Below, in pieces: positions 2,287-45,559 of a DNA stretch of 64,000 bases. Source of the DNA: Candidatus Magasanikiibacteriota bacterium (lineage in GTDB: Bacteria; Patescibacteriota; Patescibacteriia; Magasanikbacterales; UBA922); the NCBI GenBank assembly GCA_021648085.1, contig JAKITS010000001.1, positions 452,948-516,947 of the forward strand, in the 5' to 3' direction. Below the pieces are notes generated by a model. It worked only from the letters and a program-made list of their open reading frames with translations. It was not told the origin of the DNA and made no database searches. Each line of letters begins with the position of its first letter. Within the stretch, counting starts at the first letter, position 1. Both the position numbers and the translations under genes were made by a program.

Positions 2287-2325
2287 TAACAATTAAAAAA
2301 GTCTTGCATAAAATACAAGACTTTG

Positions 2326-2908: not shown

Positions 2909-3046
2909 TACACCACCTCCTATTTTATTTTGTGATTTACTGATGTTTTTTTACTTCTTTTTGCTCTACGAACAGAATGATTGTGTGCCATTTTTTACCT
3001 CCAAATGTAAAGAACCTCTTAAATCTTACCAGATTATACTATTTTT

Positions 3047-4111: not shown

Positions 4112-4204
4112 ATCTTATATTCTGTCAACACCTATTTATTAACACATTTTACACAGTTTATCAACTTGTGGCAAAACAAAAAGTAGGATACCATACGAAT
4201 TGTT

Positions 4205-6831: not shown

Positions 6832-6860
6832 ACAAAAACCCGCATTTCGCGGGTTTTTTT
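6832..6860. terminator. bidirectional Rho-independent terminator (A-run/hairpin/T-run)
   Basis: aaaaa-cccgc-atttc-gcggg-ttttttt lies immediately 3' of both recR (+) and the giant surface protein gene (-). It is also part of duplicated segment copy 1. Confidence 0.65.
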
Positions 6861-6866
6861 ATGTTT

Positions 6867-9800
6867 TTATTTTAACTCTTTTCCTATTTCGTATTCTTCA
6901 TCATTTTTTATCGTCACTATTCTATCCCACCTAAAATTCAATCTACTAAAGGCTTCCTCGTTTTTAATATGTCTTTTTACTTGTTTTGTCTGGTCTGTTA
7001 GGTCTGGCTCTAGCCTAAATACTTCTGGGTTATTTTCATATTTAACAAGTGTGTAGTTTGGATGGCGATTTGTATAATCTATTATCTCACCAATTGTGTA
7101 TTTATTGAGAAGTCTTGGGTCAATATCTTCTATCCAATTCCAACTATAGTTTAGCTTATTAAATACTTCTTCAGAGTCTATCCAATATTTTTGATTACCA
7201 AGAAGTAGGTACACCATTGGATCTGTTGTTATTTTTACGAGAGCACCATATTTTGGATCATATTTTGGACCCCAAGGCATAAAACCTAAAGTGTCATCTT
7301 CTACTGTTTCTAGTCTTTTCTCTTCTACTATCTCCACATTATTCCAAGAGTCAAAGTATGTGTAGAAAACATCTGCCCTACTAAAAGCTCTTTTTTTACA
7401 GTCTGGTGTAACAAGATATACGGCAGAAGAGTTTGGTGTTTTATATACTCCACCTTCTTTTAGACTGCAGTCTGAACCTTGTTTTTCTGTTTGAGTATCA
7501 GTCTCAGTTTCTGTATTTAACTCATTTAACAGAATTGTGTCAAAATATGTTGATGCTGTTCCACCGCTTGAAAGAAATTTAGAATAAACAGTTTTTTCTC
7601 CATTTCCAGAAGGCAGTTTCCAGTTTAATTTTGAGGTAAATGGTGTAAATACTGAACCAGCAAAATCTTTTGAATTTGAAACTGCCATTCTATCTGCATC
7701 TAATATGTTAAAAGTTATAGTTACATCTCTTGACTCTGTTGTATAAGCTCCATAATTTATTACAACTGGATTAGAAATTTCTGATTCATCTGTTAAATTT
7801 ATTAGATTAATTTTCACAGAATCATAATTTAAAAACTCTGCATACTCTATTTCCAAATCTAAAACTCCATCTTTGTTTGTGTCTACTTTTTGACTCACAC
7901 CCTTTATTAGGTTCAATATAATTGGGTCTGACTCAATTGTTACCGTAATACTCTCTTTTGCTATTCTAGAGACAAACACACTATGAAAAGAAGCTCCAAC
8001 TTCTGCAGATTTTTCTTCTTGCAGGAAAAACTCTGTAAATAATAATCCTGACGATACACTTTCCGTAGCTGGAGTTTTGGATGGAGTTGGTGGTGGTGCA
8101 AAGAATCCACCGCCGGTAGACGCAACATCGTCATCTGTAATAGTTGCGGTTACACTTGCGATAGTTAAGCTGTCAAAGTTAGAGTCTGAGCTTGCAGATG
8201 TGTTTGAGATTATAGTTGTAGTCTCGCCATCAACCTCGCTATCATCTGTAGCTGTGACTGTCACAGTTTGTTCTGTATCCCAATTTGCATTTGTAAAGGT
8301 GAGGTCAGAGGAAGAAAGACTAACTTCTGAGTTTGATAGTGCGGCTGACACAGTTACATCGTCCGTAGGTTGTGCGTCTAAAACCGCAGTGTATGTGTCA
8401 GTTGTTGACCCTTCTGTCACAGAAACAGACGAAAGAGAGATTGTAACTCCTGCTGTATCATTGTTTGTAATTGTATATGTGTAAGTTGTAGTAGAACCTA
8501 GCGAACCTCCAACAGGGTTTGATATTGTTATTATTAGAGTTTCATCATTTTCAACCAAGTCATCATCTACTACAACCAAACTCAAAGAAGTTGTTGTGTT
8601 TCCATTTGTAATTGAAGCCGTTCCGCTAGAAAGTGTGTAATCTGTTCCACTTCCTGTTGCTGTTCCTCCTGTTATTGCATAATCTACTGAGACATCACTT
8701 ACTACACTTTGATCTGAAGAAATTAAGACAGAGACTGCTGTTGTTCCCTCATCTCCAGAAGCTGTGGTTGCAGAAAAATTAATCTCATAATCAAACTGCC
8801 AACGAGTATTATTTCCAGAATCACTACAACCGGTTGTACATACTATTTGTGTACTACTTAAGTTATTATTATCTTTTACATCTAGATATTGTGCGCTCGT
8901 TGTACTTTTTGGATCAAACTTTGTCTGTGTTCCAGAGCTACTACTTCTTAGGCTCAAAAGATTTCCAGATGTTCCTGCCAAAGTTAGAGTTCCATTTACT
9001 GTTGTGGTCGTACTAGCTGGAAGTGTAAAAGTGTTTGCAGATGAGTCTGTTTTAGTTAGGTTATAAAAAGTATTTGCACCAGAAATTGTCTGGCTTGCGC
9101 CAACAAAGTCTACCGTACTTGAGTTTGGTGTAAGTGTACCTCCTGTGTTTAGGAAGTCTCCTGTTATATTTAATGTTCCAGTTGCTGAATATATTCCAGA
9201 TGCCAAAGTTATATCATTATTTATATTTGTTGTTGCAACACTCGGAGCCAAACTATCTCCAGAATCTGTAAAATTTATAGAAATATCATAAAAATCCACA
9301 ATAGAAGTAGAATAAGCATCTGAACTTGCATCACCATTTCCAACATATTCTACTGTTCCTGAATCTGTGTCATTTGTAAGTGTTACAGTCTCACCTCCTT
9401 GAATACGAAGTGTTCCATCGTTGCTAAATGTACTTGAAACAGTTAAATTATTTCCATTTAATGCGACTGTTCCAGAGCTAATTGTCATTGTGCTTGTAGC
9501 TACCGTACTCGTATTGAATGTATATGTTCCACCTCCTGTGAAAGAAACATCATAAAAAGTTGAAAAACTTGGAAGAGTGTATGAACTAGCTCCATAAAAT
9601 ATAGCTGAACTTCCAGAGCTAAAACTAGGATAAGTTGCGTTTGTTGTAACAGTCTCACCACCTTGCATTTTTAAAATTCCACCATCTTGTACCACTACTG
9701 TTCCAGAAGATCCATTTACTATTAAAGTATTTCCGTTTAGGTCTAAGGTTCCTTCTATTATGTTTAAATCTGTATTCGCATAATCCATTGTTAAACCAGA

Positions 9801-12248
9801 ATTTAATGTGACAGTTCCTGATGATTTATTTATGTTTATATCTGAATTTATTTTATCTTCCACTCCTGTTAAATCTATTGTCTGATCTTGGGTTCCCGTT
9901 AGGTTGAATGTGGCCACATCTAAATTGTCAAATGTGCTGGCCATTGAAAAGTTTGTTCCAGTAAATTCTAATATATTACCAGGCATCCTACCATCAATAA
10001 GATTTAAAGTAGAAGAAACTACTAATGTATCTCCTGAAGCAATAGTGACTGTTTGACCACTATCTCCTTCTATTGTTAAGTTTGTAAAAGTAAAAGTTGT
10101 TGGTACATCTATAGTTGCTGATGTTGAATGAGTATAATATAATGTAGTTCCATTTTCATAAACAGTAGCACCAGCTCCAATAGTAAGATTGTAAACAAGA
10201 CTTGTTGTTCCGGTTGGGAATGTAAAAGTTCCGCCTGTAATAAAAAGACCCTCGTAAATATATGTGATTGAAAGATCACCTGTTCCACCATCGAAAGTAC
10301 CTCCAGAAACTATTAAAGCCCTATAACTTTCCATTAATGCACTTTGCATATTGAAAGTTCCACCAGAGATATTTATAGCATAGGAGTTAAAATCCAAATA
10401 GTTTGAATTTTGAGCATCAAAAGTTCCTCCTGTCATTGTAAAAGCACCGTTAAACACAATGTCAGTAGAACTTGCGTTTATTGTTCCAGCTTCTAAATTT
10501 AAAGTACTTTCAAAAGTAGTAGAAGCTACACCAGAAAATTCTATTGTTGTATTCGTTGCGTTTAGTGTAAATTTAGGCATATCGACATCTGCTGGAATTA
10601 TTATATTCCTTGTGTCTGTTCCTGTTATTTTGAGAAGTCCTGTTCCACCATCAAATGTAGTGGCCATAGAAAATCCACTTCCAGGACCTATAAATTCAAA
10701 AGTACCTGAACCATCCAAAGCACCATCAACTAAATTTAAAGTAGAAGAAACTACTAATGTATCTCCTGAAGCCATGCTCACTGTTTGATTAGTACTTCCA
10801 TCAATTATAAAGTTTGTAAAAGTAAAAGTTGTTGGTACATCTATAGTTGCTGATATTGAATGAGTATAATATAATGTAGTTCCATTTTCATAAACAGTAG
10901 CAGTTGCACCAATTGTTAAATTTCTTTTTAAAGTTGTTGTTCCTGTTGGGAATGTAAAAGTTCCTCCTGAAATTGTAAGATTTGCATATGTATATTGAAT
11001 TGTAAGATTTCCTGTTCCACCATCGAAAGTTCCTCCAGAAACTGTTAAAGTGTTATAACTTTCCATTAATGCACTTTGTAAACTAAAAATACCACCTGAT
11101 ATAGTGGTAGAGCCATTAATATCCAAATAATTTGAGTTTTGTGCATCAAAAGTTCCTCCTGTCATTATAATAGATTTAAAGCTTATATCCGTAGAGCTTG
11201 CATTTATAGTACCAGCATCCAAATATAAATAACCTTCAAAAGTTGTAGACGCTACTCCAGAAAATTCTATTGTTGTGTTTACTGCGTCCAATCTAAGTAA
11301 AGGAAGCTTAACATTTGCATCAAGTATAATATTTCTTGTTTCTACTCCTGATATCTTAAGCTGTCCAGATGATGCAGAAGATCCGCCATCAAATGTTGTA
11401 GCCAAAGAAAAACCACTCCCAGGACCTGTAAATTCTAAAACTCCAGTGCCATCTAGCTCTCCGTCTATAAGCGTAAGAGTGGAAGAGACTATTACAGTGT
11501 CACCAGTATAAATAGCTAACCGCTGACCGCTTCCACCAGCAATTGTAAGGTTTGTAAAAGTAAAAGTTGTTGGAACATTTAAAACAGCACTAGTTATAAA
11601 AGTCATTATCAAATTTGTGCCATTTTCATATACAGTAGCACCAGCTCCAATAGTTAAATCGTCTGTAATAGTTGTTGTTCCGGTTGGGAATGTAAAAGTT
11701 CCACCTGAAATTGTAAGATCTGCATAACTATACTGGAATATCATAGTTCCTGTTCCACCATCGAAAGTACCTCCTGAGAAAACGAAATTATTATATGGTT
11801 CGAATACTGAAGATTGCATATTAAATGTACCTCCTGAAATTGTAGTAGATCCATTAATATCAATAATCGTATCCCCTGCATTAAATGTGCCATCAGCCTG
11901 TGTAAAATTTCCAGTAGTAAGCGTAACACCTGTTGCAACAGTAATAGTCCCAGAATAACCAGCATCTATTTGAAAAGTTGTGACAGTAGAATCAACATCA
12001 ATAGTTGCATTGTCCACATCTCCACCATCAAAAATAGCTATGTCTCCAGAAATAGGATGAGTAGTATCATTTGCCCCACCGGTTGTGGTGGACCAATTTG
12101 TGTCAGCAGAAAAATTTCCTCCAGAAGTTCCTATCCAATATTTGGTGGCTGCTTGTGACGCCGTAGGAATTAGTGAAAAAAATAAAAATAAAAAAATAAA
12201 AAAGAATAATTTTCTATACAAAAAATTATTTTTAGGTTTAGCTATCAT
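6867..12248 (-). CDS. giant secreted repeat protein (1793 aa): signal peptide, 4x ~190-aa beta-helix-like GGTF repeats, Calx-beta-like domains, Pro-rich linker, ~400-aa C-terminal domain; putative adhesin/surface protein
   Basis: N-terminal signal peptide MIAKPKNNFLYRKLFFFIFLFLFFSLIPTASQA. Repeated blocks ISGGTF(N/D)…GGTG…LTISGGTFTFPTGTT…LTIGAGATVYENGT. Calx-beta-like segment …LVVVDDDLVENDETLIITISNPVGGSLG. Linker GGGFFAPPPTPSKTP. Confidence 0.85.
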   Translation of the reverse strand: MIAKPKNNFLYRKLFFFIFLFLFFSLIPTASQAATKYWIGTSGGNFSADTNWSTTTGGANDTTHPISGDIAIFDGGDVDNATIDVDSTVTTFQIDAGYSGTITVATGVTLTTGNFTQADGTFNAGDTIIDINGSTTISGGTFNMQSSVFEPYNNFVFSGGTFDGGTGTMIFQYSYADLTISGGTFTFPTGTTTITDDLTIGAGATVYENGTNLIMTFITSAVLNVPTTFTFTNLTIAGGSGQRLAIYTGDTVIVSSTLTLIDGELDGTGVLEFTGPGSGFSLATTFDGGSSASSGQLKISGVETRNIILDANVKLPLLRLDAVNTTIEFSGVASTTFEGYLYLDAGTINASSTDISFKSIIMTGGTFDAQNSNYLDINGSTTISGGIFSLQSALMESYNTLTVSGGTFDGGTGNLTIQYTYANLTISGGTFTFPTGTTTLKRNLTIGATATVYENGTTLYYTHSISATIDVPTTFTFTNFIIDGSTNQTVSMASGDTLVVSSTLNLVDGALDGSGTFEFIGPGSGFSMATTFDGGTGLLKITGTDTRNIIIPADVDMPKFTLNATNTTIEFSGVASTTFESTLNLEAGTINASSTDIVFNGAFTMTGGTFDAQNSNYLDFNSYAINISGGTFNMQSALMESYRALIVSGGTFDGGTGDLSITYIYEGLFITGGTFTFPTGTTSLVYNLTIGAGATVYENGTTLYYTHSTSATIDVPTTFTFTNLTIEGDSGQTVTIASGDTLVVSSTLNLIDGRMPGNILEFTGTNFSMASTFDNLDVATFNLTGTQDQTIDLTGVEDKINSDININKSSGTVTLNSGLTMDYANTDLNIIEGTLDLNGNTLIVNGSSGTVVVQDGGILKMQGGETVTTNATYPSFSSGSSAIFYGASSYTLPSFSTFYDVSFTGGGTYTFNTSTVATSTMTISSGTVALNGNNLTVSSTFSNDGTLRIQGGETVTLTNDTDSGTVEYVGNGDASSDAYSTSIVDFYDISINFTDSGDSLAPSVATTNINNDITLASGIYSATGTLNITGDFLNTGGTLTPNSSTVDFVGASQTISGANTFYNLTKTDSSANTFTLPASTTTTVNGTLTLAGTSGNLLSLRSSSSGTQTKFDPKSTTSAQYLDVKDNNNLSSTQIVCTTGCSDSGNNTRWQFDYEINFSATTASGDEGTTAVSVLISSDQSVVSDVSVDYAITGGTATGSGTDYTLSSGTASITNGNTTTSLSLVVVDDDLVENDETLIITISNPVGGSLGSTTTYTYTITNNDTAGVTISLSSVSVTEGSTTDTYTAVLDAQPTDDVTVSAALSNSEVSLSSSDLTFTNANWDTEQTVTVTATDDSEVDGETTTIISNTSASSDSNFDSLTIASVTATITDDDVASTGGGFFAPPPTPSKTPATESVSSGLLFTEFFLQEEKSAEVGASFHSVFVSRIAKESITVTIESDPIILNLIKGVSQKVDTNKDGVLDLEIEYAEFLNYDSVKINLINLTDESEISNPVVINYGAYTTESRDVTITFNILDADRMAVSNSKDFAGSVFTPFTSKLNWKLPSGNGEKTVYSKFLSSGGTASTYFDTILLNELNTETETDTQTEKQGSDCSLKEGGVYKTPNSSAVYLVTPDCKKRAFSRADVFYTYFDSWNNVEIVEEKRLETVEDDTLGFMPWGPKYDPKYGALVKITTDPMVYLLLGNQKYWIDSEEVFNKLNYSWNWIEDIDPRLLNKYTIGEIIDYTNRHPNYTLVKYENNPEVFRLEPDLTDQTKQVKRHIKNEEAFSRLNFRWDRIVTIKNDEEYEIGKELK

Positions 12249-12337
12249 ATATAAAAATCTCTATTAATCTTTTAATTATATCTTTTAATTACAATAATAT
12301 CAAATTGGGAATTGTGAATAAAAAATTATTAAAAATA

Positions 12338-12364
12338 AAAAAAGACGCTCAGCGTCTTTTTTTT
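12338..12364. terminator. Rho-independent terminator of rplU (hairpin gacgc-tca-gcgtc flanked by A- and T-runs)
   Basis: aaaaaaagacgctcagcgtctttttttt, 12 nt 3' of the rplU stop. This is the last element inside duplication copy 1. Confidence 0.6.
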
Positions 12365-12377
12365 AACTGAAATATTT

Positions 12378-12910: not shown

Positions 12911-13387
12911 CTATTTGTCGGAAACAGTCAAAATATCACCTATTTTAAGATTATTTTGCTCTGCCCAGTTTGCTGGTAATTCCAAAACCATGTTTGAGTC
13001 TTTTCTTGGATAATACACCATAAGCTCAGTGTTTGATATATTTTCAGGTTGCAAATTTGGTGCAATATCTACTACTTTCCCACTATTAAACCAAACAATA
13101 TCTATTGAAAACTCCATATCCCTCATTACAAAACCATGTCTGTCAAAATTATCAAATAAAAACATCATTCCATCGAATTTTCCAAAATCTTTCCGATTAC
13201 TTAGACCTTTATATCTTGTAGATTTTGTATTGGAAACCATTACATTCAGATTTTTATCTTGCAAAACAACTACCGCACTCGGCGTACGCAAGTTCCAAAC
13301 AGATAATACTGAAAATGCTACAAAAAATATACCTAAAAATATTAAATTTATTTTTTTAAATGCACCCTTCTTTTTTTTAATGCCCAT
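12911..13387 (-). CDS. DUF192-family secreted/membrane-anchored protein
   Basis: N-terminal TM/signal. DUF192-like pattern GMMFLFDNF…FVMRDMEFSIDIVWFNSGKVVDI…MVLELPANWAEQNNLKIGD. Confidence 0.55.
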   Translation of the reverse strand: MGIKKKKGAFKKINLIFLGIFFVAFSVLSVWNLRTPSAVVVLQDKNLNVMVSNTKSTRYKGLSNRKDFGKFDGMMFLFDNFDRHGFVMRDMEFSIDIVWFNSGKVVDIAPNLQPENISNTELMVYYPRKDSNMVLELPANWAEQNNLKIGDILTVSDK

Positions 13388-13411: not shown

Positions 13412-14479
13412 TTATTTTTTTCCTGCTTCTTGTTTTTTGTTTATTTTTGTAAACCTAAACGCTAACAAAAGCATTAAAATAAACAGTAAGACAAGTGCAA
13501 TTAGTTTCTGACTACTTTGTAAAAACAATGCTGTTAACCCAAACAAAATTGCTATAGTATAAAAAAATAATACTGCCTGTTTTTGTGAAAAACCAGACTC
13601 CAAAAGTTGAAAATGTAAATGCTCCCTATCCCCCAAAAATACCGACTTCTTTTTTTGTATTCTACGAATTATCACCCTACCAATATCTAGCATTGGCACA
13701 CCAACAACCAAAAGTGTGATGGCTATTTTACTTCCAGAAATAATTGCCAAAGATCCAAGAATAAAACCAACAAACAAACTTCCCCCTTCACCCAAAAATA
13801 TTTTTGCCGGTGAAAAATTCCACACCAAAAAACCCAAACAAGCACCAGCAAAAACAATAGATATAACTGCAATCTCAGGCTGAAACCAAATTGTATAAGT
13901 AGAAAAAGAAAATATCATCAAAGCACCAATAAACACCAAGCCAGTGACCAAACCATCTAAACCATCTAAAAGTTTTGTGGTATACATCATTGCCATAAGC
14001 CAAAAAAATACTATAATATCTGCCAAAATAGCCCAATCACCAAAAGAACCAAAAGAAACTTTAAATAAACTTAAATCAAAAACTCCACCAAAAGGATTTG
14101 TGATTATATGTGGCCCAACTCCAAAAAATATCACAACTAAAACCGCAAAAATAGGAAAAACTATTTGGGTTTTTGCTTTTAAATTATACTTATCGTCTAA
14201 AAAACCGCCAATGATTAAAATTAAACTCCCCACAAAAAGCCCAATGAATTTTCTAAAACCTACATTTAGACCTAAAATTCCATTATAATAAAGCGAAAAA
14301 GAAACGATAAAAAAACTAATCATAATCGCCAAACCACCACCAAGTGGAATCTTTTTTTTATGCCTTTTTCTTTTTCCGTGCGGAATATCCATGACATTCA
14401 TTTTCTTCATCAAAACCAAAACAACCTTCGATAAAGAAAGTGACAAAATAAATGTTATAAAAAAATATATTAAAAGCAT
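13412..14479 (-). CDS. polyprenyl-phosphate N-acetylhexosamine-1-phosphate transferase (MraY/WecA glycosyltransferase family 4)
   Basis: ~10 TM helices. Signature LLDGLDGLVTG and DDKYNL loop motif typical of MraY/WecA/WbpL. Confidence 0.8.
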   Translation of the reverse strand: MLLIYFFITFILSLSLSKVVLVLMKKMNVMDIPHGKRKRHKKKIPLGGGLAIMISFFIVSFSLYYNGILGLNVGFRKFIGLFVGSLILIIGGFLDDKYNLKAKTQIVFPIFAVLVVIFFGVGPHIITNPFGGVFDLSLFKVSFGSFGDWAILADIIVFFWLMAMMYTTKLLDGLDGLVTGLVFIGALMIFSFSTYTIWFQPEIAVISIVFAGACLGFLVWNFSPAKIFLGEGGSLFVGFILGSLAIISGSKIAITLLVVGVPMLDIGRVIIRRIQKKKSVFLGDREHLHFQLLESGFSQKQAVLFFYTIAILFGLTALFLQSSQKLIALVLLFILMLLLAFRFTKINKKQEAGKK

Positions 14480-14545: not shown

Positions 14546-14911
14546 GTGTCTATATCGTTCATTACAAAAACAGCTTGGGTGATAAATCCAGACGACCCAT
14601 CACAAATAGAATATTTTTTGTTTCTAAATGCAGAGAAAATGGAAGCTGACCAAAATTTTAAAGATTTTTTAGGAGAAGAGTATTCTGTTGTGGACTTGGG
14701 AGAATATGTAAATGATTTACTTGATTTTATACTTGTAAATTGCATACAGACTTTTGATTTTATATATAGCAAACAGCAGGAAAATTATGCAATTGCAGCT
14801 TTAGATATAAGTCAAAGAGATGAAAACAATGTATCTACAGACTTTTTATTTATTATAGTTTTAGAAAAAATAGATTCAGATAAAAAAAATCATCTCAAAT
14901 TAGTAGAATAA
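14546..14911 (+). CDS. hypothetical acidic protein (121 aa)
   Basis: Strong RBS acaaggaggg 5-7 nt upstream of a GTG start. No recognisable motif. Confidence 0.5.
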   Translation: MSISFITKTAWVINPDDPSQIEYFLFLNAEKMEADQNFKDFLGEEYSVVDLGEYVNDLLDFILVNCIQTFDFIYSKQQENYAIAALDISQRDENNVSTDFLFIIVLEKIDSDKKNHLKLVE

Positions 14912-14921
14912 GGAGTATAAA

Positions 14922-15224
14922 ATGTCCATCGTCAAAAATATAGTCTTACTAGAATATAAAGACAATTCTTCAGAAATAGATATTATTGTCACTCTAAGTA
15001 AAATATTAATGGCGTTAAGTTCAGAATGTAAAAAAGCTTTAGGAATAAACCCGTCTTTGAGACTTTTGACCATCTTTATTTTGCAAAATTTTCCAGAAGT
15101 ATCAGGTATTTTAAGTGAAAAAATATCAGAAGGTTGTGAGTTGAAACACATAAACATAGAGGTAGGTAGTACAAGCAATCCTTTAATGTTGTTAATTTTT
15201 ACACTGAAAAAACCAACAAGTTAA
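14922..15224 (+). CDS. hypothetical protein (100 aa)
   Basis: Strong RBS aaggag 7 nt upstream of ATG. No recognisable motif. Confidence 0.5.
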   Translation: MSIVKNIVLLEYKDNSSEIDIIVTLSKILMALSSECKKALGINPSLRLLTIFILQNFPEVSGILSEKISEGCELKHINIEVGSTSNPLMLLIFTLKKPTS

Positions 15225-15228
15225 TCTA

Positions 15229-15262
15229 AAACTACACACTTAAGGGTGTAGTTTTTTATTTA
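15229..15262. terminator. bidirectional terminator hairpin (aaactacac…gtgtagtttttt)
   Basis: Inverted repeat ctacacac/gggtgtag with flanking A/T runs, between the convergent genes 14922-15224 (+) and clp (-). Confidence 0.5.
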
Positions 15263-17985
15263 ATCTCTAACTCTAAACCTCTCCCCAAAATCACGACATC
15301 TCCCCTATTTAATTTATCTTCCAAAAACAAATCTGCCAACTTATTTTCTACATTGTCTTGAATAGCTCTTCGCATTGGTCGTGCTCCAAAATCTGGATCA
15401 TAGCCAATATCAGCTAATTCTTCTAGTGCAATACTCTCCACTTTAAACTCAAAACCTTTCTCTTCCAATTGTACACCAACTTGTTTTAACATCAAACTTG
15501 CAATTTGTTTTATCTCTTCTTTTTCTAAAGTTTTGAACAAAACTATAGCATCAAACCTATTTAAAAACTCTGGTGCAAAATATTCACGAAGCTCATTTCG
15601 CATCATTTTTTGCCGAACCTCTTCTACCTCTACACCACTATTTAATTGTTCTTGTGCAAAAGCTGTGCCAGCGTTTGAAGTAGAAATTATAATTGTATTT
15701 GTAAAATCTACCGTTCTACCAACACTATCTGTAAGACGCCCGTCATCAAAAACCTGTAAAAATAAATTTAAAACATCTTTGTGTGCTTTTTCTAATTCGT
15801 CTAGCAAAACAAGTGAGAAAGGTTGTTTCATTACAGCTTCGGTGAGAATTCCTGTTCCTTGTTTTTCTGGTTGCCCAATCAATCTGTAAATACTATTTGG
15901 CTCTTGGTACTCACTCATATCTATTCTTATCATATTGTTTTCTGAGCCAAAATAATTATTTGCAATTGTTTTAGCAAGTTCTGTCTTTCCTACTCCGGTT
16001 GGACCTAAAAATAAAAACACAGAAATTGGCTTTTTCTCACTCCGCATACCAGCTCTTGCGCGCTTTAGTGCGTTTGCAACAAGCTCAACAGCATCGTCCT
16101 GACCAATTACCCTTTTGTGCATTTCATCTCCCAAATTCATCAACTTACTCTTTTCTTCACTTGTTACAGAAACCGCTGGAATTCCAGTCTTGCTTTTTAT
16201 AATATATCCAATATCTTCCTCGGTCACCAGCTGAGAATTTGGTTTTGAGTGAACATAAGAACCAGCTTCATTTACAATTTCTAGCGCACTTCCTGGTAAA
16301 CTCTTGTTGTTTATAAACTTCCTTGCCAAAACTACAGATTGTTCAATTGCAGAATAAGAAAAAAATACTTTATTTTTACTTTCAACTCCCCCAATTTTGG
16401 ATTCTACCACTTGAATTGCCTGATTATTATCCAATTCTTTTATGTCCACAGTTTCAAAAACAGAGCTTAAATTACTTCCAGAAATAAATTTTTTATAGCC
16501 ACTATTTGTACTTGTTGCAAAAGTTAAAATACTTCCACCACTCAAATGTTCGCTTAGGCTATTTGCAACTTCATTTGCCAACTCACTAGCCTCTGTATTC
16601 AATAATTCATCTAAATTTTCTAAAAATAAAATTACATTTCCAGCTCTAGCTACTTCACTCATAATTGTTAGAACCCTTTCTTTTGCCCCACTCGGCGTAG
16701 TGCCAGCGGTTAGTGAGCTCATAGAAATTTTTACCAATCTTTTGTCAAATAATCTTTCTGGAACATTGTTTTCTATCATTTTTCTTGCAAGCCCTTCTAC
16801 TAATGTTCTTTTGCCAACACCATAATCTCCCACAAGTAAAATACTAGACCTACCACTATCCACAACTCTAAAAATTTCTTCGAATTCTTTTTTTCTGCCA
16901 ATACATGGTGCAATTGCCCCATATTTTGCCATTGCAGTGAGATCTTCGCTAAATCTATTTAAATAGGGAGTAGAGACCGCAGTCATAGCTCTATCAATTC
17001 CATGTTTACTACGGAAAGATCCTGCTTTTTTAAGTTCTTTGTACTCTTCTCGCAATTTTTCTCGCAAAGAAAACCAAGCCGTCACATTTTCTAATTTATC
17101 ACTGTCAATTTTTAAATCATACAAAATTTCTTGTAACCTCTCTGATTGTTCCAAAGTACAGACTAACAAATCCAAAACACCAACATATTTTTGACCATTT
17201 TTGAAAGCTAATTCATAAGCTTTGAAAATAATCTGATAAAAATCCTCTCTAAACTCTGGTAAATGCACACTTTTTCCAGGTGTCAGAAGTAAATCCTGAT
17301 ATTGCTCTTTGAAAAATTTTGTCGGTACTTCAAGCCGAAGCATTGAAGAAGAGACAAGTTTAGAGTCTAATAGTCCCATAAATAAATACTCCGAATTTAC
17401 CTCTACTGATTTTTTATTTTTAGCTGTCAAATATACTTTTCCCAAAACATCTAGTGCGTCTTCCGTAAAACTTTTTGATATGTCTTTTTGTTGAGTTTTT
17501 TTAAACTTATCGACAATACTCCAATCTGATGAAGTAAGGTTTGAAAATTCTTGCTTTTCAAACTCTAATTTCTTTTTATAATTATAACTCTCAACTTTTC
17601 CAGCCTTTTTACCAAAAACCATTGTTCTATAAATAAAATAGCAAAAAAAGAAAATAGAAATTAAAAACAAAGCAACCAAATAATTACCAGAACCAAACCA
17701 AAAATCTGAAGTAAAAAAAGAAATAACTTCTAAATCTCTATAAAGAAAAAAAGAGAGTAATCCAAAGAAGATAAACGATAGAAACAAAGAAAGCGTTATT
17801 CTAATTTTATCCAAAACCTTTCTTCCTTTTTTAAGTTTTATATTATATTCAGTTATTTCGCTACCCCAATTTAACAATAAATTTCTACGGACCAAAACAG
17901 CCAAAAATCCACTGCAAGCAGTTTTGAATTTTCCCGGATCAGAACAGATTATAACTGGTAATTGTTCACCTTTTTGAAACTTCAT
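15256..17985 (-). CDS. Clp/Hsp100-family AAA+ ATPase (ClpC/ClpA-like, short M-domain) with N-terminal transmembrane anchor and apparently degenerate D1 ATP site
   Basis: Two hydrophobic helices at aa ~63-83 and ~100-120. Clp_N repeats (EDALDVLGKVYLTAKNKK…, …YQIIFKAYELAFKNGQKYVG). D1 Walker A reads GDYGVGKRT instead of GxPGVGKT, and D1 Walker B reads ILFLENLDEL instead of ILFIDELH. D2 is canonical (GPTGVGKT; LLDELEKAH). Confidence 0.85.
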   Translation of the reverse strand: MKFQKGEQLPVIICSDPGKFKTACSGFLAVLVRRNLLLNWGSEITEYNIKLKKGRKVLDKIRITLSLFLSFIFFGLLSFFLYRDLEVISFFTSDFWFGSGNYLVALFLISIFFFCYFIYRTMVFGKKAGKVESYNYKKKLEFEKQEFSNLTSSDWSIVDKFKKTQQKDISKSFTEDALDVLGKVYLTAKNKKSVEVNSEYLFMGLLDSKLVSSSMLRLEVPTKFFKEQYQDLLLTPGKSVHLPEFREDFYQIIFKAYELAFKNGQKYVGVLDLLVCTLEQSERLQEILYDLKIDSDKLENVTAWFSLREKLREEYKELKKAGSFRSKHGIDRAMTAVSTPYLNRFSEDLTAMAKYGAIAPCIGRKKEFEEIFRVVDSGRSSILLVGDYGVGKRTLVEGLARKMIENNVPERLFDKRLVKISMSSLTAGTTPSGAKERVLTIMSEVARAGNVILFLENLDELLNTEASELANEVANSLSEHLSGGSILTFATSTNSGYKKFISGSNLSSVFETVDIKELDNNQAIQVVESKIGGVESKNKVFFSYSAIEQSVVLARKFINNKSLPGSALEIVNEAGSYVHSKPNSQLVTEEDIGYIIKSKTGIPAVSVTSEEKSKLMNLGDEMHKRVIGQDDAVELVANALKRARAGMRSEKKPISVFLFLGPTGVGKTELAKTIANNYFGSENNMIRIDMSEYQEPNSIYRLIGQPEKQGTGILTEAVMKQPFSLVLLDELEKAHKDVLNLFLQVFDDGRLTDSVGRTVDFTNTIIISTSNAGTAFAQEQLNSGVEVEEVRQKMMRNELREYFAPEFLNRFDAIVLFKTLEKEEIKQIASLMLKQVGVQLEEKGFEFKVESIALEELADIGYDPDFGARPMRRAIQDNVENKLADLFLEDKLNRGDVVILGRGLELEIK

Positions 17986-18341
17986 AATAAACCAATAGAG
18001 CTAATAAAAACTACAAGTAGTACAGATGGGAAACTAATCCAAAACAAAACAAAAACCCCAACAATCCAAATCCAACCGATGACCAAAAATCCACGAACAA
18101 CCCCATTTACAAGTCGCATAAAAAAACTCATAATTCTACCCTGCAAATCATACTGCCCAAACATTGGCACAAAGAGATTTTTAAACCACAAAAGTGGAGC
18201 TAAGCGTAAATTTGCCTGCCCAACCAAATTATAAGAAAAAATCAAAATCTGCTGTAAACCTTTTGTAAACCACCAAACTGGAAAATACAAAAAATCTAGC
18301 AGAAAATCTATAATTAATTTTTGTATAATTGCTATCCACAT
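17982..18341 (-). CDS. small integral membrane protein (119 aa), start overlaps clp gene (ATGA)
   Basis: Hydrophobic ORF. 4-nt overlap with the downstream clp start suggests co-transcription. Confidence 0.5.
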   Translation of the reverse strand: MWIAIIQKLIIDFLLDFLYFPVWWFTKGLQQILIFSYNLVGQANLRLAPLLWFKNLFVPMFGQYDLQGRIMSFFMRLVNGVVRGFLVIGWIWIVGVFVLFWISFPSVLLVVFISSIGLL

Positions 18342-18443: not shown

Positions 18444-19211
18444 ATGAACAGAGAGGAGAGTGTCTATTCTTGGGAAAATGATTATAATATTTCTTCACAA
18501 AATTTAATAGCACAAAATAAAAGTGGTAAAATTATATCTTTATTAGTAGTGTGCAATAACGAATATGGTAAATATTTTTTAATTAGATTTGTACAACCAA
18601 ATATAGACAAAGAAGTATGGAAAAAAATACAAACAGGTATGCAAAAATATTGTGTAGAGAGTAATGAGGAAATTTCTTTTATTTTTAGTACTTACGAAAA
18701 TGGTAAACAAAAATCTTTGGAGTTGGCAAACAAAATTCTACAAAGTGCTGGTTTTGTTTTAGAAGAAAAATTAAAAGTTCAAAAAGAGTTTAAAACACTT
18801 TATAATACATGTTCAAATATAAGTCCTGAAACATTTGAAAATTTTTTAAAAAAAATTTATTTTTGGAAAATACTTACACCAACAATATATACGGCTTGCC
18901 AAAAAAATGGGGCTCAACTATTGTTTATATGTCAAAACAATAGCGGATACTGGCGAGTATCCCTAAATATAAAATATTTAGAGATACTTTTGCAAAAAAA
19001 TTATACAGAATTATTAGAACTAATTTCAAACTTATTTGAAAATTCTCCGATATCAACCCTATTTCCAGTTTTTCAAATACAAATGAATTATTTATACAAG
19101 GAGTGGAATATCGGCCCTTTTGAAGATCCTGAAAAAGGCTTAAAACAAATTCAAAATGTTTTTGACAAAGTTCTACATAAACTAGGTTTTATTCTTTATC
19201 CTCATAAATAA
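18444..19211 (+). CDS. hypothetical protein (255 aa)
   Basis: ORF with RBS agagggg upstream. No recognisable motifs. Confidence 0.5.
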   Translation: MNREESVYSWENDYNISSQNLIAQNKSGKIISLLVVCNNEYGKYFLIRFVQPNIDKEVWKKIQTGMQKYCVESNEEISFIFSTYENGKQKSLELANKILQSAGFVLEEKLKVQKEFKTLYNTCSNISPETFENFLKKIYFWKILTPTIYTACQKNGAQLLFICQNNSGYWRVSLNIKYLEILLQKNYTELLELISNLFENSPISTLFPVFQIQMNYLYKEWNIGPFEDPEKGLKQIQNVFDKVLHKLGFILYPHK

Positions 19212-19217
19212 AAATAA

Positions 19218-19246
19218 ACCACACTTTTCAAAAGTGTGGTTTTTTA
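19218..19246. terminator. bidirectional terminator (aaccacacttttcaaaagtgtggtttttt)
   Basis: Perfect 9-bp stem ccacacttt/aaagtgtgg between the convergent gene ends. Confidence 0.55.
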
Positions 19247-19264: not shown

Positions 19265-19630
19265 CTACCTTCTAGCAAAAACTCCAGCAGTCACATCCAC
19301 ATAATCAATTTTGGAAATAGGAATCATCTCCAATTCTTGTAAACGATCTTGGATACTATGCATAGAACGATATTGTGAAATCTCAAAACTTAATTTATCA
19401 TTTTCACGCTCTAGTGATACTAGTTGTTTTTCCAAATCAGCAATTTGATAACCTTTTGTAGCCACAGAATTAACACTTCCCAAATACATAATCCCAAAAA
19501 AAGCAATCAAACAGAAAAGGAGTGCGCGAGTAGTTTTTGTCATAAACCACTTTCGAGCTTTCAATTTCTCGTCTCGCATTGCATGATTTTTATTGTGATT
19601 GTTTACACGCATATTATATTTTTTCTGCAA
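19265..19630 (-). CDS. ftsL: FtsL-like cell division protein (single TM + coiled coil)
   Basis: Position immediately downstream of rsmH (17-nt overlap). One TM helix (ALLFCLIAFFGIMYLG) followed by a coiled-coil segment (LEKQLVSLERENDKLSFEISQY). Confidence 0.6.
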   Translation of the reverse strand: MQKKYNMRVNNHNKNHAMRDEKLKARKWFMTKTTRALLFCLIAFFGIMYLGSVNSVATKGYQIADLEKQLVSLERENDKLSFEISQYRSMHSIQDRLQELEMIPISKIDYVDVTAGVFARR

Positions 19631-20507
19631 CTCTTAATTTTGCACTTCTAGCTCGCCTATTTTCATTTAATTCTTCTTGTCCTGGCGAAACTGGCTTTTT
19701 TGTAATAATTTTCAACTTATTTTGCTGTGATTTGAAAAAATGTTTTACAACCCTATCTTCCAAAGAATGAAAACTTATAACAGCCAGTCTTCCGCCTGTT
19801 TTCAAATTTTCTACAGCTTGAGGAAGTACATCTTTCAAAATACGGATCTCATCGTTTACAGCAATTCGCAGTGCTTGTAAAATTCTAGTTGCCGGATGTA
19901 TTTTTTCTCTTGAACCCTTCTTTTTGTAAATATCCATTGCAATTTCTACCAACTGACCTGTTTTAGAAAATTTTTCTTTTCTTCTTTTTTCAATTACAAC
20001 TTTTGCAATATCTTTGGCAAATCTCTCTTCACCATATTCACGAAAGATTTTCTCCAATTCTTCAAAACTCGCATTGTTTAATATATCTGCTGCTGTTTCA
20101 GAATTTTCATGATCTTGGGCATTTCCACCAAACCTCATATCTAACAGTTCATCTTTTTGAAAAGAAAATCCACGACCACGCTCTTCAAACTGTGGACTAG
20201 ACCAGCCTAAATCAAACAAGATTGCATCCACTTCTTTAAAAACCTCTTTTTCCAAAATCTTGCTAAAGTTAGAAAAATTATCTCTGACCAATACAACATT
20301 TTCTTCTGAAGATTCTAAAAATTTTTTTGCACGCAAAATTGCCTCGGGATCCATATCTATCCCAAGCAATTTTCCATTTGGTAAAATCTTTTCTAAAATG
20401 AGCTCCGAATGCCCTGCATCGCCAAGCGTCCCATCCACGACCTTCATTCCAGACTTCAAATTTAACAACTCTACCACCTCATTCACTAATACTGGTTTAT
20501 GTCTCAT
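19614..20507 (-). CDS. rsmH: 16S rRNA (cytosine1402-N4)-methyltransferase RsmH
   Basis: MRHKPVLVNEVVELL…VDGTLGDAGHS… matches the conserved RsmH/MraW N-terminus and SAM-binding region. Confidence 0.9.
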   Translation of the reverse strand: MRHKPVLVNEVVELLNLKSGMKVVDGTLGDAGHSELILEKILPNGKLLGIDMDPEAILRAKKFLESSEENVVLVRDNFSNFSKILEKEVFKEVDAILFDLGWSSPQFEERGRGFSFQKDELLDMRFGGNAQDHENSETAADILNNASFEELEKIFREYGEERFAKDIAKVVIEKRRKEKFSKTGQLVEIAMDIYKKKGSREKIHPATRILQALRIAVNDEIRILKDVLPQAVENLKTGGRLAVISFHSLEDRVVKHFFKSQQNKLKIITKKPVSPGQEELNENRRARSAKLRVAEKI

Positions 20508-20518: not shown

Positions 20519-20950
20519 TTATACCCCCAAATCCGCCATCTGCTCTGCTATTTCACTACTTTCTTGTTCTGCTTTTGTAGTATATTCCACCCACTTTTCC
20601 TGATCCCAAATCTCCAATCTATTGTACAAACCTGCCACAATAGTTGTTTTTTTGAGCCCAGCAAAACTGCGCAAATATTCTGGCAAAACTATTCTTCCCT
20701 GCTTGTCTATATCCACATCCATTGCTCCAGCCAACATAAGTCTAGAAAACGCACGACTCTTGGCCTGACTAAAAGGCAAAGAAGCAAGTTTTTCCGCTAG
20801 CTTTTCCCATTCTTTTTTTGTATAAAGAAATAAACAATTGTCCAATCCACGAGTAATTACTGCACCACCTTTTAGATCTTCTCTAAATTTCTTTGGCACA
20901 GCCATTCTCCCCTTCTCGTCTAAATTGTGCTTGTATTCTCCAATAAACAT
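20519..20950 (-). CDS. mraZ: transcriptional regulator MraZ
   Basis: MFIGEYKHNLDEKGRMAVPKKFRE…; duplicated MraZ domain (DKQGRIVLPEYLR). Confidence 0.9.
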   Translation of the reverse strand: MFIGEYKHNLDEKGRMAVPKKFREDLKGGAVITRGLDNCLFLYTKKEWEKLAEKLASLPFSQAKSRAFSRLMLAGAMDVDIDKQGRIVLPEYLRSFAGLKKTTIVAGLYNRLEIWDQEKWVEYTTKAEQESSEIAEQMADLGV

Positions 20951-21951: not shown

Positions 21952-23211
21952 TTACCTTATTTTCCTCAACTTCCTCTGATAATTTATTGCAAACCTGTGC
22001 GCCTCATCGCGCACTTTTATGAAAGTTTCTTTGTTTTCTTCTACCAACTTATAATTTATCTGATCAAAAATAAATTCATTCTTTTTTCGTTTGGCGCCTT
22101 TTGCGATTCCAACCACAGGAATTTCTACACTAAATTCCTTCAAAATCTTTTTTACTCTGTTTACTTGCGGTTTTCCACCGTCTATTAGAAATACATTCGG
22201 CAAAAGCCACTTGTCATTACTCTGCTCATCTATGTCCACTGCCCCAGAATGGCGAAGCCTTCTTCTTATTACTTCTTCCAAACAAGCTGTATCGTTTTGT
22301 CCTTTTACAGTTCTTATTTTAAATTTTCTATATTTACTTTTGTTTGCTTCACCGTTTTCAAACACAACCATAGAGCCAACTTTGCCAGTTTCACCCAGAT
22401 TAGAAATATCATAACCTTCTATTCTTTTTAATTTTTTCTCATCTTCAATGTTTGCCACAAAACTTTTGTTTATAAGTGCAATATCACGAATTTCTTGAAG
22501 AGAAAAAATCTGATTGCGAAGTCTGCGCGCCTCCTCGAACTCTTCTTTTTTTGCACTCTCTTTCATCCTTATTTTTAGCTGTTTTATCAAAATCTTCTTT
22601 TTTCCATTCAAAAATAATCCAAGCGGATTTACAATTTTTCTTTTATAATCTTTTGCAGAAATTTCACCTACACAAACACCTTCGCACTGATGCATTTGAT
22701 AATACATACAAGATCGTTTTGCGTTTGGTTTGCACACAGAAAAATGAAAGATCCTACGAAGTACTGCTAAAGTTTCCTTAGATTTTAATCCAGGAAAAGG
22801 CCCAAAAATTTTTAAATATTTCTTTTTTATTTCTTTTTCAGAAAATTGCTTGAAAGTGTGCTGACGCAAAGTCAAAACACGCGAAAATTCATCTTTTGTA
22901 AAAATTATATAATTCCAACTTTTATCGTCCTTCCCTTTTACATTATATTTTGGCTCATACTTTTTTATATAAATTGCCTCCAAAATCACTGCTTCCAGTA
23001 CAGAATCAGTTTGCTTGTATTTTATATTTTTTACCTCGTGAATCAACTCTTCTATTGGTCTAGAAGTTCTTTGCCCAGCAAAATAACTACGCACACGACT
23101 TTTGAGCGAAGTCGCCTTTCCTACATATATAAGCTGTTTTTTTACACAATAAAAAAGATAAATTCCTGGTTTATCTGGTAAATTTTGGATTTTTTTCTTT
23201 ATATTCTGCAT
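21952..23211 (-). CDS. uvrC: excinuclease ABC subunit C (short form, 419 aa, lacks C-terminal (HhH)2 domain)
   Basis: GIY-YIG motif GIYLFYCVKKQLIYVGKATSLKSRVRSYF. UVR motif EEFEEARRLRNQIFSLQEI. RNase H-like endonuclease region IEGYDISNLGETGKVGSMVVFENG. The protein ends ~180 aa earlier than canonical UvrC. Confidence 0.9.
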   Translation of the reverse strand: MQNIKKKIQNLPDKPGIYLFYCVKKQLIYVGKATSLKSRVRSYFAGQRTSRPIEELIHEVKNIKYKQTDSVLEAVILEAIYIKKYEPKYNVKGKDDKSWNYIIFTKDEFSRVLTLRQHTFKQFSEKEIKKKYLKIFGPFPGLKSKETLAVLRRIFHFSVCKPNAKRSCMYYQMHQCEGVCVGEISAKDYKRKIVNPLGLFLNGKKKILIKQLKIRMKESAKKEEFEEARRLRNQIFSLQEIRDIALINKSFVANIEDEKKLKRIEGYDISNLGETGKVGSMVVFENGEANKSKYRKFKIRTVKGQNDTACLEEVIRRRLRHSGAVDIDEQSNDKWLLPNVFLIDGGKPQVNRVKKILKEFSVEIPVVGIAKGAKRKKNEFIFDQINYKLVEENKETFIKVRDEAHRFAINYQRKLRKIR

Positions 23212-29625: not shown

Positions 29626-29638
29626 AAGGTAATTCTCA

Positions 29639-29939
29639 CACGTCATATTGAGCTTGACTGGGGATCCAGGGTTTATATCACAGTTCTATTTTGTATACTC
29701 TGGATTCCCAGTCAAGCTGAGAATGACAGAAAACTTTTTCATGTCATATTGAGCGGAGTGAAACGGAGTCGAAATATCTTGGGACTATATCATTAGAACT
29801 TTGAATATTCAGTCTTCTAATGTTTTTGTTTCGAGATTCTTCGGCTGTCGCTCAGGATGGCGTGATAGAAAGGTGATATTGTCTCGAGATCCATTCTACT
29901 TCATTCCACTTTGCCTCATTCCGCTCAGGATGACATGTG
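29639..29939. repeat. cluster of three MITE-like repeats: 29639-29729 (~91 bp, TIR cacgtcatattgagcttgactggggatcc / ggattcccagtcaagctgagaatgacag), 29740-29873 (~134 bp, near-identical to 27260-27390 element), partial 29883-29939
   Basis: Direct sequence comparison. These fill the whole uvrB-rnj intergenic region. Confidence 0.6.
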
Positions 29940-43063: not shown

Positions 43064-43122
43064 AATTTATTTTAAAACCACGAACCCCGAGCAGTACTCA
43101 GGGTTCGGATGTTTTATGACGA

Positions 43123-45555: not shown

Positions 45556-45559
45556 ATTT

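Follow-up and report, generated by a model that had tools for sequence, protein, structure and literature searches.

A membrane-anchored branch of Clp/Hsp100 ATPases from Patescibacteria with a degenerate D1 module and a small membrane-protein partner

The stretch of DNA analyzed here (64,000 nucleotides, about 32 % G+C across its whole length; hereinafter, the window) comes from a Candidatus Magasanikiibacteriota bacterium (assembly GCA_021648085.1, contig JAKITS010000001.1, positions 452,948 to 516,947) and encodes on its minus strand a 909-amino-acid (aa) ATPase of the Clp/Hsp100 family and, immediately upstream, a 119-aa membrane protein that we denote small119. A first-pass annotation, made from the sequence and its open reading frames (ORFs), had described the ATPase as a membrane-anchored Clp protein whose first AAA+ module (D1) is degenerate. 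In the databases, the identical protein (entry P0001, from a 984-kb contig of a Candidatus Magasanikbacteria metagenome-assembled genome, MAG) is labeled 'ATP-dependent Clp protease ATP-binding subunit (ClpC)' by NCBI and JGI, and its relatives are named ClpC or 'AAA family ATPase'. Our analysis points to a different kind of protein, a membrane-integrated Hsp100 with a single catalytically complete ring, without a ClpP-docking loop or pore-loop aromatics, and with small119 as its partner. The features of the two genes, with coordinates confirmed through translation and ratios of nonsynonymous to synonymous substitution rates (dN/dS) computed against the closest relative (L003, 82 % identical protein), are as follows.

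15256..17985, minus strand: ATPase gene, 909-aa membrane-anchored Clp/Hsp100-family protein, ATG start (ORF list and Pfam)
17806..17985, minus strand: predicted cytoplasmic N-terminal segment, residues 1-60; a degenerate zinc-ribbon remnant, then a conserved basic juxtamembrane stretch
17740..17799, minus strand: predicted transmembrane helix 1 (TM1), residues 63-82; AlphaFold2 (AF2) helix 46-83
17626..17685, minus strand: predicted transmembrane helix 2 (TM2), residues 101-120; AF2 helix 102-124
17026..17475, minus strand: divergent Clp_N-like N-domain and long connecting helix, residues 171-320; dN/dS 0.10
16936..17013, minus strand: N-D1 linker motif RSKHGIDRAMTAVSTPYLNRFSEDLT, residues 325-350; family-specific
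16231..16950, minus strand: D1 AAA+ module, residues 346-585; catalytically degenerate; dN/dS 0.14
16804..16830, minus strand: D1 Walker A, GDYGVGKRT; Lys kept, Mg-binding Thr replaced by Arg
16675..16707, minus strand: D1 pore loop, AGTTPSGAKER against AGxKYRGEFEER; Tyr gone, one residue shorter
16612..16632, minus strand: D1 Walker B, ILFLENL; Asp replaced by Glu, catalytic Glu by Asn
16453..16473, minus strand: D1 Arg-finger site, NLSSVFE against ALERRFQ in ClpC; both arginines gone
15286..16128, minus strand: second AAA+ module (D2) and D2-small domain, residues 620-900; the only catalytically complete ring; dN/dS 0.05
15838..15882, minus strand: D2 pore loop LIGQPEKQGTGILTE against L(I/V)GxPPGYVGYxxGGxLTE; GYVG gone, four residues shorter
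15586..15672, minus strand: site of the missing ClpP-docking loop; no IGF, VGF or IGL, 8 residues shorter than in ClpC
17982..18341, minus strand: small119 gene, 119-aa membrane protein; its stop codon overlaps the ATPase start (ATGA)

In the Pfam search, D2 of the ATPase was recognized strongly (AAA_2, E value 2.9e-54; ClpB_D2-small, E value 1.9e-23) and D1 weakly (AAA_16, residues 361-407; AAA_lid_9, residues 521-592), with a further hit to the family AAA, which gives the protein the two tandem AAA+ modules followed by a ClpB_D2-small domain that characterize class 1 of the Clp/Hsp100 proteins. The best PDB sequence match is ClpC of Bacillus subtilis (3j3t, E value 8e-129, HMMER), and the alignments to 3j3t and 3j3s underlie the residue comparisons below. 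The AF2 model, built from a 77-sequence alignment (mean predicted local distance difference test score, pLDDT, 86.6), shows in succession the hairpin, a helical N-domain (residues 169-290), a long helix (295-323) and the two AAA+ modules. Foldseek returned target TM-scores of 0.82-0.88 against the ClpC, ClpB and ClpA protomers, on which the D1-D2 body of the model superposes with a root-mean-square deviation of about 4 Å over about 580 residues. The N-domain is the divergent part: a direct Pfam scan for Clp_N gave 16.6 bits against a cut-off of 20.7 and covered a single repeat only, PF02861 is on record for the identical protein P0001, and a BLAST comparison of the N-domain with canonical N-domains gave no match. 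What favors a Clp_N assignment is the alignment of the ClpA model described below, which starts at residue 181, and the fold in the AF2 model.

Two sets of relatives were compared. The close clade comprises 144 unique sequences, namely the proteins from the homologue search and those of 80 genome loci, which were found with 7 close sequences and cover the close Magasanikbacteria-type clade; at least 133 species-level genomes of this clade match two family-specific peptides. The superfamily was sampled by comparing a full-length profile with 1.84 billion representative proteins, and among the best 150 matches, all above 738 bits, 139 are full length, corresponding to at least 139 clusters at 50 % identity. 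A homologue search with a D1 profile yielded 13 mostly fragmentary proteins and added nothing. The source names of the family, wherever given, are Magasanikbacteria, Uhrbacteria, Falkowbacteria or 'Patescibacteria group'. The Patescibacteria-type cluster, with proteins 50-78 % identical, also occurs in many species-representative MAGs whose records (L003, L004, L006 and others) bear the title 'uncultured Gammaproteobacteria bacterium'; such titles evidently reflect a placeholder or wrong taxonomy. A search of the full-text literature found no description of this family, nor of the function of DUF192, a conserved neighbor described below.

The two N-terminal hydrophobic helices from which the first-pass annotation had deduced tethering to the membrane are recovered by independent means and across the family. 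Kyte-Doolittle analysis delineated segments 63-81 (2.37) and 100-118 (2.11) in the ATPase, separated by a hairpin loop of about 19 residues, and the mean number of lysines plus arginines is 5.1 before TM1, 0.2 inside TM1, 1.4 in the loop and 3.7 after TM2. Because basic residues flank the hairpin and are few in the loop, an N-in/C-in topology is predicted, which would place the AAA+ rings on the cytoplasmic side. Of 82 relatives, 78 carry an N-terminal extension of about 170 residues that includes hydrophobic segments, the 4 exceptions being fragments or just below threshold, and none of 37 canonical ClpC-like proteins has it; at least one N-terminal hydrophobic segment occurs in 138 of the 139 full-length representatives. 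A wrong start codon was considered and ruled out by the conservation of the N-terminal region, together with the dN/dS values (residues 1-60, 0.15; hairpin, 0.29) and with the 8 and 12 stop codons found in the other two frames of the first 366 nucleotides (nt); the N-terminus is thus genuinely coding and under purifying selection. Before TM1, 110 of the 144 close relatives carry a zinc ribbon (CxxC...CxxC, in full CxxCxGxG...CxxCxGxG) that matches Pfam DnaJ_CXXCXGXG in the homologues with an E value of about 2e-3, below the threshold of significance. The window ATPase has lost this ribbon, with a 9-residue deletion and only C14 and C24 left.

The substitutions that had been read from D1 by eye were reproduced residue by residue in the HMMER alignment to ClpC. 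In the Walker A region, LLVGDYGVGKRTLVEGLA of the window aligns with VLIGEPGVGKTAIAEGLA of ClpC, so that GDYGVGKRT falls on GEPGVGKTA, and in the Walker B region VILFLENLDELL aligns with IILFIDELHTLI, which places ILFLENL on ILFIDEL. These changes are typical of the clade: the Walker A Lys is present in 135 of the 144 close relatives and Thr or Ser at the next position in 21, and the site of the catalytic Glu is occupied by Asn in 124 and by Glu in 1. The D1 pore loop of ClpC, AGTKYRGEFEDR, aligns to AGTTPSGA-KER, and an aromatic residue is found in this loop in 2 of the 144 relatives; the loop is conserved as AG[TS]T.[SA]GA.ER, with a mean top-residue fraction of 0.74. At the Walker A, Walker B and Arg-finger sites, where an active module carries GK[ST], DE and RR, D1 of the window has K-R, E-N and S-V. 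Without the catalytic Glu, the Arg fingers, the Walker A Thr and the Walker B Asp, D1 is predicted to be incapable of ATP hydrolysis. The module retains the P-loop Lys and the fold, and it is under purifying selection.

Among the 139 full-length representatives, D1 retains GK[ST] in 70, RR in 12 and the Walker B DE in 5. Given that the P-loop Lys is kept and that the replacement of Glu by Asn resembles the Glu to Gln trap mutation, D1 probably still binds nucleotide in half of the superfamily, as judged from sequence. GK[ST], DE and RR occur together in D1 in none of the 279 unique family sequences, so that a dead D1 is a defining trait of the family; the losses form a graded series, which reaches its extreme in the clade of the window. 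The degenerate D1 and the membrane anchor, for which the first-pass annotation had proposed to examine related lineages, are both family-wide.

The description of D2 as fully canonical in the first-pass annotation stands for its catalytic residues and fails for two of its loops. All five catalytic elements (Walker A, Walker B, sensor 1, Arg finger and sensor 2) have the canonical residues, without exception among the 144 close relatives, and Walker B is DE in 138 of the 139 representatives. Because a trans-acting Arg finger makes sense only in an oligomer, the invariance of this residue (R810) points to an oligomeric ring. The D2 pore loop is altered: SPPGYVGYDEGGQLTE of ClpC aligns to QPEK----QGTGILTE, so that PPGYVGY becomes QPEKQGT, an aromatic residue is present in 3 of the 144 close relatives, and the pattern across the family is [QA]PG[QE][QK]G[TS]G[ILV]LTE. 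The pore-loop-1 aromatic that marks threading AAA+ unfoldases (KYR in D1, GYVG in D2) is therefore absent from both rings, and this absence, along with that of the ClpP loop, makes the original designation 'unfoldase' doubtful. An aromatic residue at position 713 (GYLTE, in 45 of the 139 representatives) was considered as a relocated pore paddle and rejected, given that canonical ClpB of Escherichia coli has GGYLTE adjoining an intact GYVG.

At the site of the ClpP-docking loop, for which IGF or IGL had been suggested as the motif to look for, the ClpC segment ...KYVGFNVQDE... corresponds to LNSGVEVEE in the window ATPase, that is, the loop is deleted. A tripeptide of the form [ILVM]G[FLIM] was found in 3 of the 144 close relatives and in 1 of the 139 superfamily representatives, the loop being missing in the other 138. 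The M-domain, previously called short, is absent altogether: residues 405-466 of ClpC have no counterpart in the HMMER alignment, in which query residue 581 joins the two alignment blocks, and PF02151 is absent from the family and present in the outgroup. A feature specific to the family is the N-D1 linker, with the pattern (R/K)(S/P)KxG(M/I)(D/N)RAMTAxATPxL(N/D)xFSxDLT, which is the second most conserved segment after the large domain of D2 (mean pairwise identity 0.65). Residues W304, T335 and T339 are conserved in at least 86 % of sequences across the superfamily, AF2 confidence falls at the linker (block means 68 and 65), and this segment may be a docking or regulatory motif.

The start codon of the ATPase overlaps the stop codon of small119 in the sequence TTATGAAG, an arrangement that had already been noted and taken to suggest a functional pair, and that speaks for translational coupling of the two genes. 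The genomic comparison gives this suggestion much greater weight. In every one of the 76 close-clade loci whose sequence extends upstream of the ATPase gene, the adjacent gene on that side is a small119 homologue; the two genes are separated by a median of 3 nt, and by at most 20 nt in 65 of these loci. A small119 homologue is found upstream in 8 of 9 distant contexts as well (L002, L083, L084, L085, L087, L088, L089 and L090). In the ninth distant locus (L086, 6001-8583), there is no separate small gene, and the small119 domain is fused to the ATPase. Fusion of the small119 domain to the ATPase N-terminus was detected in four representative clusters, P0268 (member P0299), P0279, P0293 and, weakly, P0278, with profile E values of 1e-10 to 1e-14 over residues ~2-105; in the fusions, the zinc ribbon and the hairpin are missing, and their place is taken by the transmembrane segment of small119 together with a further hydrophobic segment. 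The deep-branching fused members keep GK[T] in Walker A and DE in Walker B of D1, and the Arg fingers are gone. This Rosetta-stone pattern indicates that small119 is an integral part of the machine. That it is an obligate small membrane subunit of the ATPase is strongly supported by gene order and fusions, and it appears to be the only universal genomic association of the ATPase in the loci compared.

Little else is recognizable in small119. The protein belongs to no Pfam family (3 single-member noise matches), and searches of NCBIfam and of PDB sequences gave no match; the best Foldseek hit against PDB had an E value of 1.9, with the long hairpins of PspA, ESCRT-III and BAR proteins appearing at noise level only. 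The homologue search for small119, limited by its word index, gave 14 proteins. Invariant are D16, YFPxWW, G28, LAPxLWxxNxxVPMFGQxDxQGRxxSFxxR, R83, W90 and P105. The AF2 model (pLDDT 90) consists of two long helices, 2-47 and 66-115, and hydrophobicity is very high over the last ~35 residues.

In the close clade, the pair resides in an almost invariant gene order on one strand, mraZ-rsmH-ftsL(-like)-small119-Clp-GT4-DUF192-rplU (L21), observed in about 65-76 loci, where GT4 stands for the Glycos_transf_4 gene. The same order is also found in Uhrbacteria- and Falkowbacteria-type relatives, and phmmer searches with the rsmH and mraZ proteins of the window recovered it in more than 65 loci. The corresponding genes of the window are listed below.

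20519-20950, minus strand: mraZ (MraZ family in equivalent genes); head of the division/cell-wall (dcw) cluster
19614-20507, minus strand: rsmH (Methyltransf_5 assigned to the equivalent genes of related loci)
19265..19630, minus strand: FtsL-like bitopic protein (NCBIfam FtsL_Actino, E value 2.2e-6, below cut-off); follows rsmH in 68 loci
13412..14479, minus strand: GT4 (PF00953), polyprenyl-phosphate sugar-phosphate transferase; conserved downstream neighbor
12911..13387, minus strand: DUF192 gene (PF02643); conserved after GT4

In 67 loci GT4 is the neighbor of the ATPase gene (median gap 15 nt), the two genes being at most 20 nt apart in most relatives, and in 54 of 63 loci DUF192 and GT4 overlap or abut (median gap -4 nt). 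In one distant relative, P0151 (1231 aa; L090, 4240-7935), a single reading frame joins the ATPase to GT4, with DUF192 and rplU next in order, and the C-terminal residues 914-1227 of the fusion protein share 41 % identity with residues 28-350 of GT4 from the window. The NCBIfam scores of the latter are 90 bits for wecA, 79 for archaeal MraY and 70.5 for mraY, all below cut-off; it also contains a ...HLH(F/H)... motif that resembles WecA/TagO more than the HHH of MraY. Elsewhere, the pair is located after rpmH-rnpA-yidD-yidC (L087), after tgt (L083, L089 and L090) or near dsbA (L088). Taken together, the gene content is consistent with an envelope, division or membrane-biogenesis context that would be lineage-dependent. 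The handling of pilus or secretion substrates, proposed in the first-pass annotation, finds no support among the conserved neighbors: these are mraZ, rsmH and ftsL upstream and GT4 and DUF192 downstream, with yidC upstream in one distant relative.

In the window, the ancestral operon is broken up in two places by insertions on the plus strand. A 255-aa ORF without a Pfam or NCBIfam match (18444-19211) is inserted between ftsL and small119 and ends in a bidirectional terminator-like hairpin (19216-19242), and two ORFs of 121 and 100 aa (14546-15224), of no convincing family, lie between the ATPase and GT4. Such inserts beside the pair are common only to the window and its closest relative L003, which has the 255-aa and 121-aa ORFs. 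The terminator scan also found a G+C-poor hairpin at 15228..15255, directly after the ATPase stop codon; it was called on the plus strand and would be a terminator-like element common to the convergent plus-strand ORFs, its use by the minus-strand transcript being putative. On the other side of the dcw genes, uvrC (21952-23211), uvrA (23938-26517) and uvrB (27571-29646) are clustered on the minus strand and adjoin mraZ, with a PAP2 gene on the plus strand between uvrC and uvrA; the adjacency of uvrC and mraZ recurs in many related loci.

Comparison with characterized systems places the ATPase apart from each of them. It shares with ClpC (B. subtilis, S. aureus; ClpC1 of M. tuberculosis) the canonical D2 site and the order of D1, D2 and D2-small after what is here a divergent, Clp_N-like domain; it differs from ClpC by its membrane hairpin, by its obligate small membrane partner and by the lack of the M-domain, the VGF/IGF loop, the D1 catalytic sites and both pore tyrosines. 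Like ClpA of E. coli, it has no M-domain, and the ClpA model TIGR02639 aligns in one stretch to residues 181-899. The division of labor in ClpA is similar, D1 contributing chiefly to assembly and D2 doing most of the motor work; unlike the window ATPase, ClpA is soluble and possesses an IGL loop, an active D1 and the KYR and GYVG pore loops. The absence of a ClpP loop is shared with ClpB/Hsp104, whereas ClpB is soluble, with a long M-domain, two active rings and pore tyrosines. None of the NCBIfam cut-offs for these groups was reached (bits obtained/cut-off: ClpA TIGR02639 468/993, PRK11034 377/1350, ClpB TIGR03346 515/1232, ClpV 420/885, ClpK 416/1900, ClpG 403/1900). Outside the Hsp100 proteins, Pex1/Pex6, p97 and NSF likewise combine a scaffold ring of no or weak hydrolysis with a motor ring, but they belong to another AAA+ clade, are not integral to the membrane and keep aromatic loops in the active ring. 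FtsH and Msp1/ATAD1 resemble the window protein in that an N-terminal transmembrane anchor sets a hexameric AAA+ ring at the membrane surface, where it acts on membrane proteins; unlike it, they have a single ring of the classical AAA clade with aromatic loops, and FtsH has its own protease domain. A further functional analogy is with the Torsins, which are related to the D2 of Clp/Hsp100 proteins, are associated with the membrane via an N-terminal hydrophobic region, lack aromatic pore loops and depend on membrane-protein cofactors (PMC5425593). Torsins, AAA+ proteins of the eukaryotic ER and nuclear envelope, differ in being single-ring and luminal and in receiving the Arg finger from the cofactor; the window ATPase has two rings and an Arg finger of its own in D2. 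The Torsin family of Pfam (PF06309) scored 20.3 bits against a cut-off of 27 on residues 613-684 of the ATPase, and the resemblance is one of analogy, not of membership.

Collectively, these observations give what we judge to be an even chance that the ATPase is a ClpP-independent, D2-driven membrane machine with a small membrane subunit, engaging components of the envelope or of the division apparatus in a non-canonical manner. In the ring that the ATPase would form, all motor activity would come from D2, and D1 would serve as a static scaffold that may carry bound nucleotide; small119 would be an integral membrane subunit whose conserved cytoplasmic motif lies beside the N-domain; and the complex would work without a protease. 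ATP turnover in D2 would then remodel or release a membrane-embedded client of the envelope/division machinery, the best candidate for the client or partner being the adjacent pathway of the WecA/TagO-type polyprenyl-phosphate N-acetylglucosamine-1-phosphate (GlcNAc-1-P) transferase. The client would be engaged via short, polar, conserved pore loops and not by processive threading with tyrosine paddles. Aromatic pore loops are held to be critical for processive unfolding by Clp/Hsp100 proteins (PMC5425593), and because they are absent here, short-range remodeling or release is favored over processive threading.

Several observations weigh against this interpretation. The structural description is solid, and the function is inferred from context and fusions; likewise, we infer the oligomeric state, the ATPase activity, the binding of nucleotide by D1 and the client. 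The pore loops are conserved, not decayed, and Ile, Leu or Val follows the D2 loop, so threading with non-aromatic loops is possible. Furthermore, an aromatic residue is present in the D2 pore loop of 23 of the 139 representatives (~17 %), PPG[YF] is kept in 10 representatives, and the ancestor of the family, judging from these sequences, was probably a threader. As for the envelope connection, the preference for a WecA/TagO-like over an MraY-like GT4 draws on sub-threshold scores and on the motif, and the Clp-GT4 fusion was seen in one MAG only and may have arisen from an assembly or frameshift error. Four loci (L086, L087, L088 and L089) have no GT4 beside the pair, which means that the dcw/GT4 neighborhood is not universal, and in the window itself the pair is split from ftsL and GT4 by the plus-strand ORFs and hairpins.

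Much of the same evidence can be accommodated by a membrane-protein extractase or unfoldase, of the Msp1 type or akin to FtsH without its protease, that threads its clients via short polar or aliphatic loops and pulls them out of the membrane, to be refolded or passed on to another protease. This reading, which encompasses the membrane-protein quality control envisaged in the first-pass annotation, is a viable rival, although we consider it somewhat unlikely. The membrane anchor with the rings on the predicted cytoplasmic side, the retention of a constrained Clp_N-like substrate/adaptor domain, the conserved pore-loop sequences, PPG[YF] in D2 of some relatives and the yidC gene adjoining the pair in L087 are all compatible with extraction, and Pex1/Pex6 and p97 offer examples of threading by D2 with a D1 ring of little or no activity. 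What makes us doubt it is the pore aromatic missing in both rings, the D2 loop shorter by four residues, and the lack of a ClpP loop through which extracted proteins could be degraded.

A more specific and frankly speculative version of the D2-driven membrane machine, which we hold to be improbable in its full form, is that Patescibacteria possess an Hsp100-derived machine that has abandoned threading, with D2 as the only motor, polar Thr/Ser/Gly/Gln loops and the small119 subunit, coupled to the GlcNAc-1-P transferase. It would act as an ATP-driven regulator or remodeler of envelope glycopolymer or lipid-carrier synthesis at division and would be a bacterial counterpart, in function, of the Torsins with their cofactors. 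In the extreme version of this proposal, the complex would be a translocase for a non-protein polymer.

A membrane-tethered disaggregase of the ClpB type working with DnaK has a small chance of being correct. ClpB gave the top NCBIfam score (515 bits, in the D2 region), the ATPase lacks the ClpP loop as ClpB does, and a dnaK operon is located in the window at 41984-46707. However, that score is far below the ClpB cut-off of 1232, the M-domain, which is the coiled coil for DnaK docking, is absent, D1 is inactive and both pore tyrosines are gone. In addition, L084, a Falkowbacteria-type contig, encodes both the membrane form and, only a few kb away, a canonical ClpB (881 aa; 2226-4868, minus strand) that has the full M-domain, KFRGEFE, RRF and PPGYIGH, plus an SIGF tripeptide; in this genome at least, the membrane form is thus a paralogue additional to ClpB.

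Still less credible is the function implied by the database labels, that of a conventional ATP-binding subunit of the ClpC/ClpA type for the ClpP protease. The annotation as ClpC by NCBI and JGI and the best PDB sequence and fold matches, which are to ClpC, speak for it, but the docking tripeptide is present in just 3 of 144 and 1 of 139 sequences, there is no M-domain or UVR motif for control of the MecA type, the ClpA score of 468 falls far below the cut-off of 993, and D1 is dead. A weaker point in the same direction is that tblastn with E. coli ClpP and a ClpX-core query gave no match to clpP or clpX in the window and some 90 related loci, a set that covers a small share of each genome. 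Finally, the progressive loss of canonical D1 and pore-loop motifs across the superfamily might be seen as the mark of a decaying paralogue or a pure scaffold without motor function, but this can be practically discounted in view of the D2 catalytic residues kept in 144 of 144 relatives, the D2 dN/dS of 0.05, the purifying selection on all domains, a distribution that takes in no fewer than 133 species-level genomes in the close clade and, across the family, no fewer than 139 clusters at 50 % identity, and the tightly conserved synteny.

Clp/Hsp100 proteins are soluble threading machines, and a large, conserved, membrane-integrated branch of them, with an obligate small membrane subunit, would amount to a natural experiment on a ring deprived of the second motor, the tyrosine paddles and the protease dock. 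The location of this branch in a division/cell-wall cluster would offer a testable handle on the envelope biology and division of the Candidate Phyla Radiation (CPR). Moreover, a partnership with ClpP is almost certainly wrong for hundreds of database entries that bear the name 'ATP-dependent Clp protease ATP-binding subunit ClpC'.

The remainder of the window contains several other genes and elements worth recording. A 696-aa ORF on the plus strand (196-2286) was considered as a candidate FtsH and rejected, having no Pfam match. The heat-shock operon hrcA-grpE-hsp20-dnaK-dnaJ (41984-46707, minus strand) is without clpB. Envelope genes (33047-34660; 52998-53705; 56193-57017; 58214-58810) encode MurJ, a YidC-like insertase, UppP/BacA and a type IV pilin-like protein (N_methyl). 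A duplication of 5.5 kb (6834-12365 and 46817-52357) shows 99.66 % identity, with 8 mismatches and 2 gaps, and each copy contains a repeat-rich 1793-aa ORF with a signal peptide (6867-12248 and 46849-52230, minus strand), the C-terminal 510 residues of which have no Pfam match, and a terminator hairpin AAAAACCCGCATTTCGCGGGTTTTTT. Outside the window, in a related Magasanikbacteria contig (L001, 17418-18760), the gene for the DnaB helicase is split by an intein with a LAGLIDADG endonuclease.

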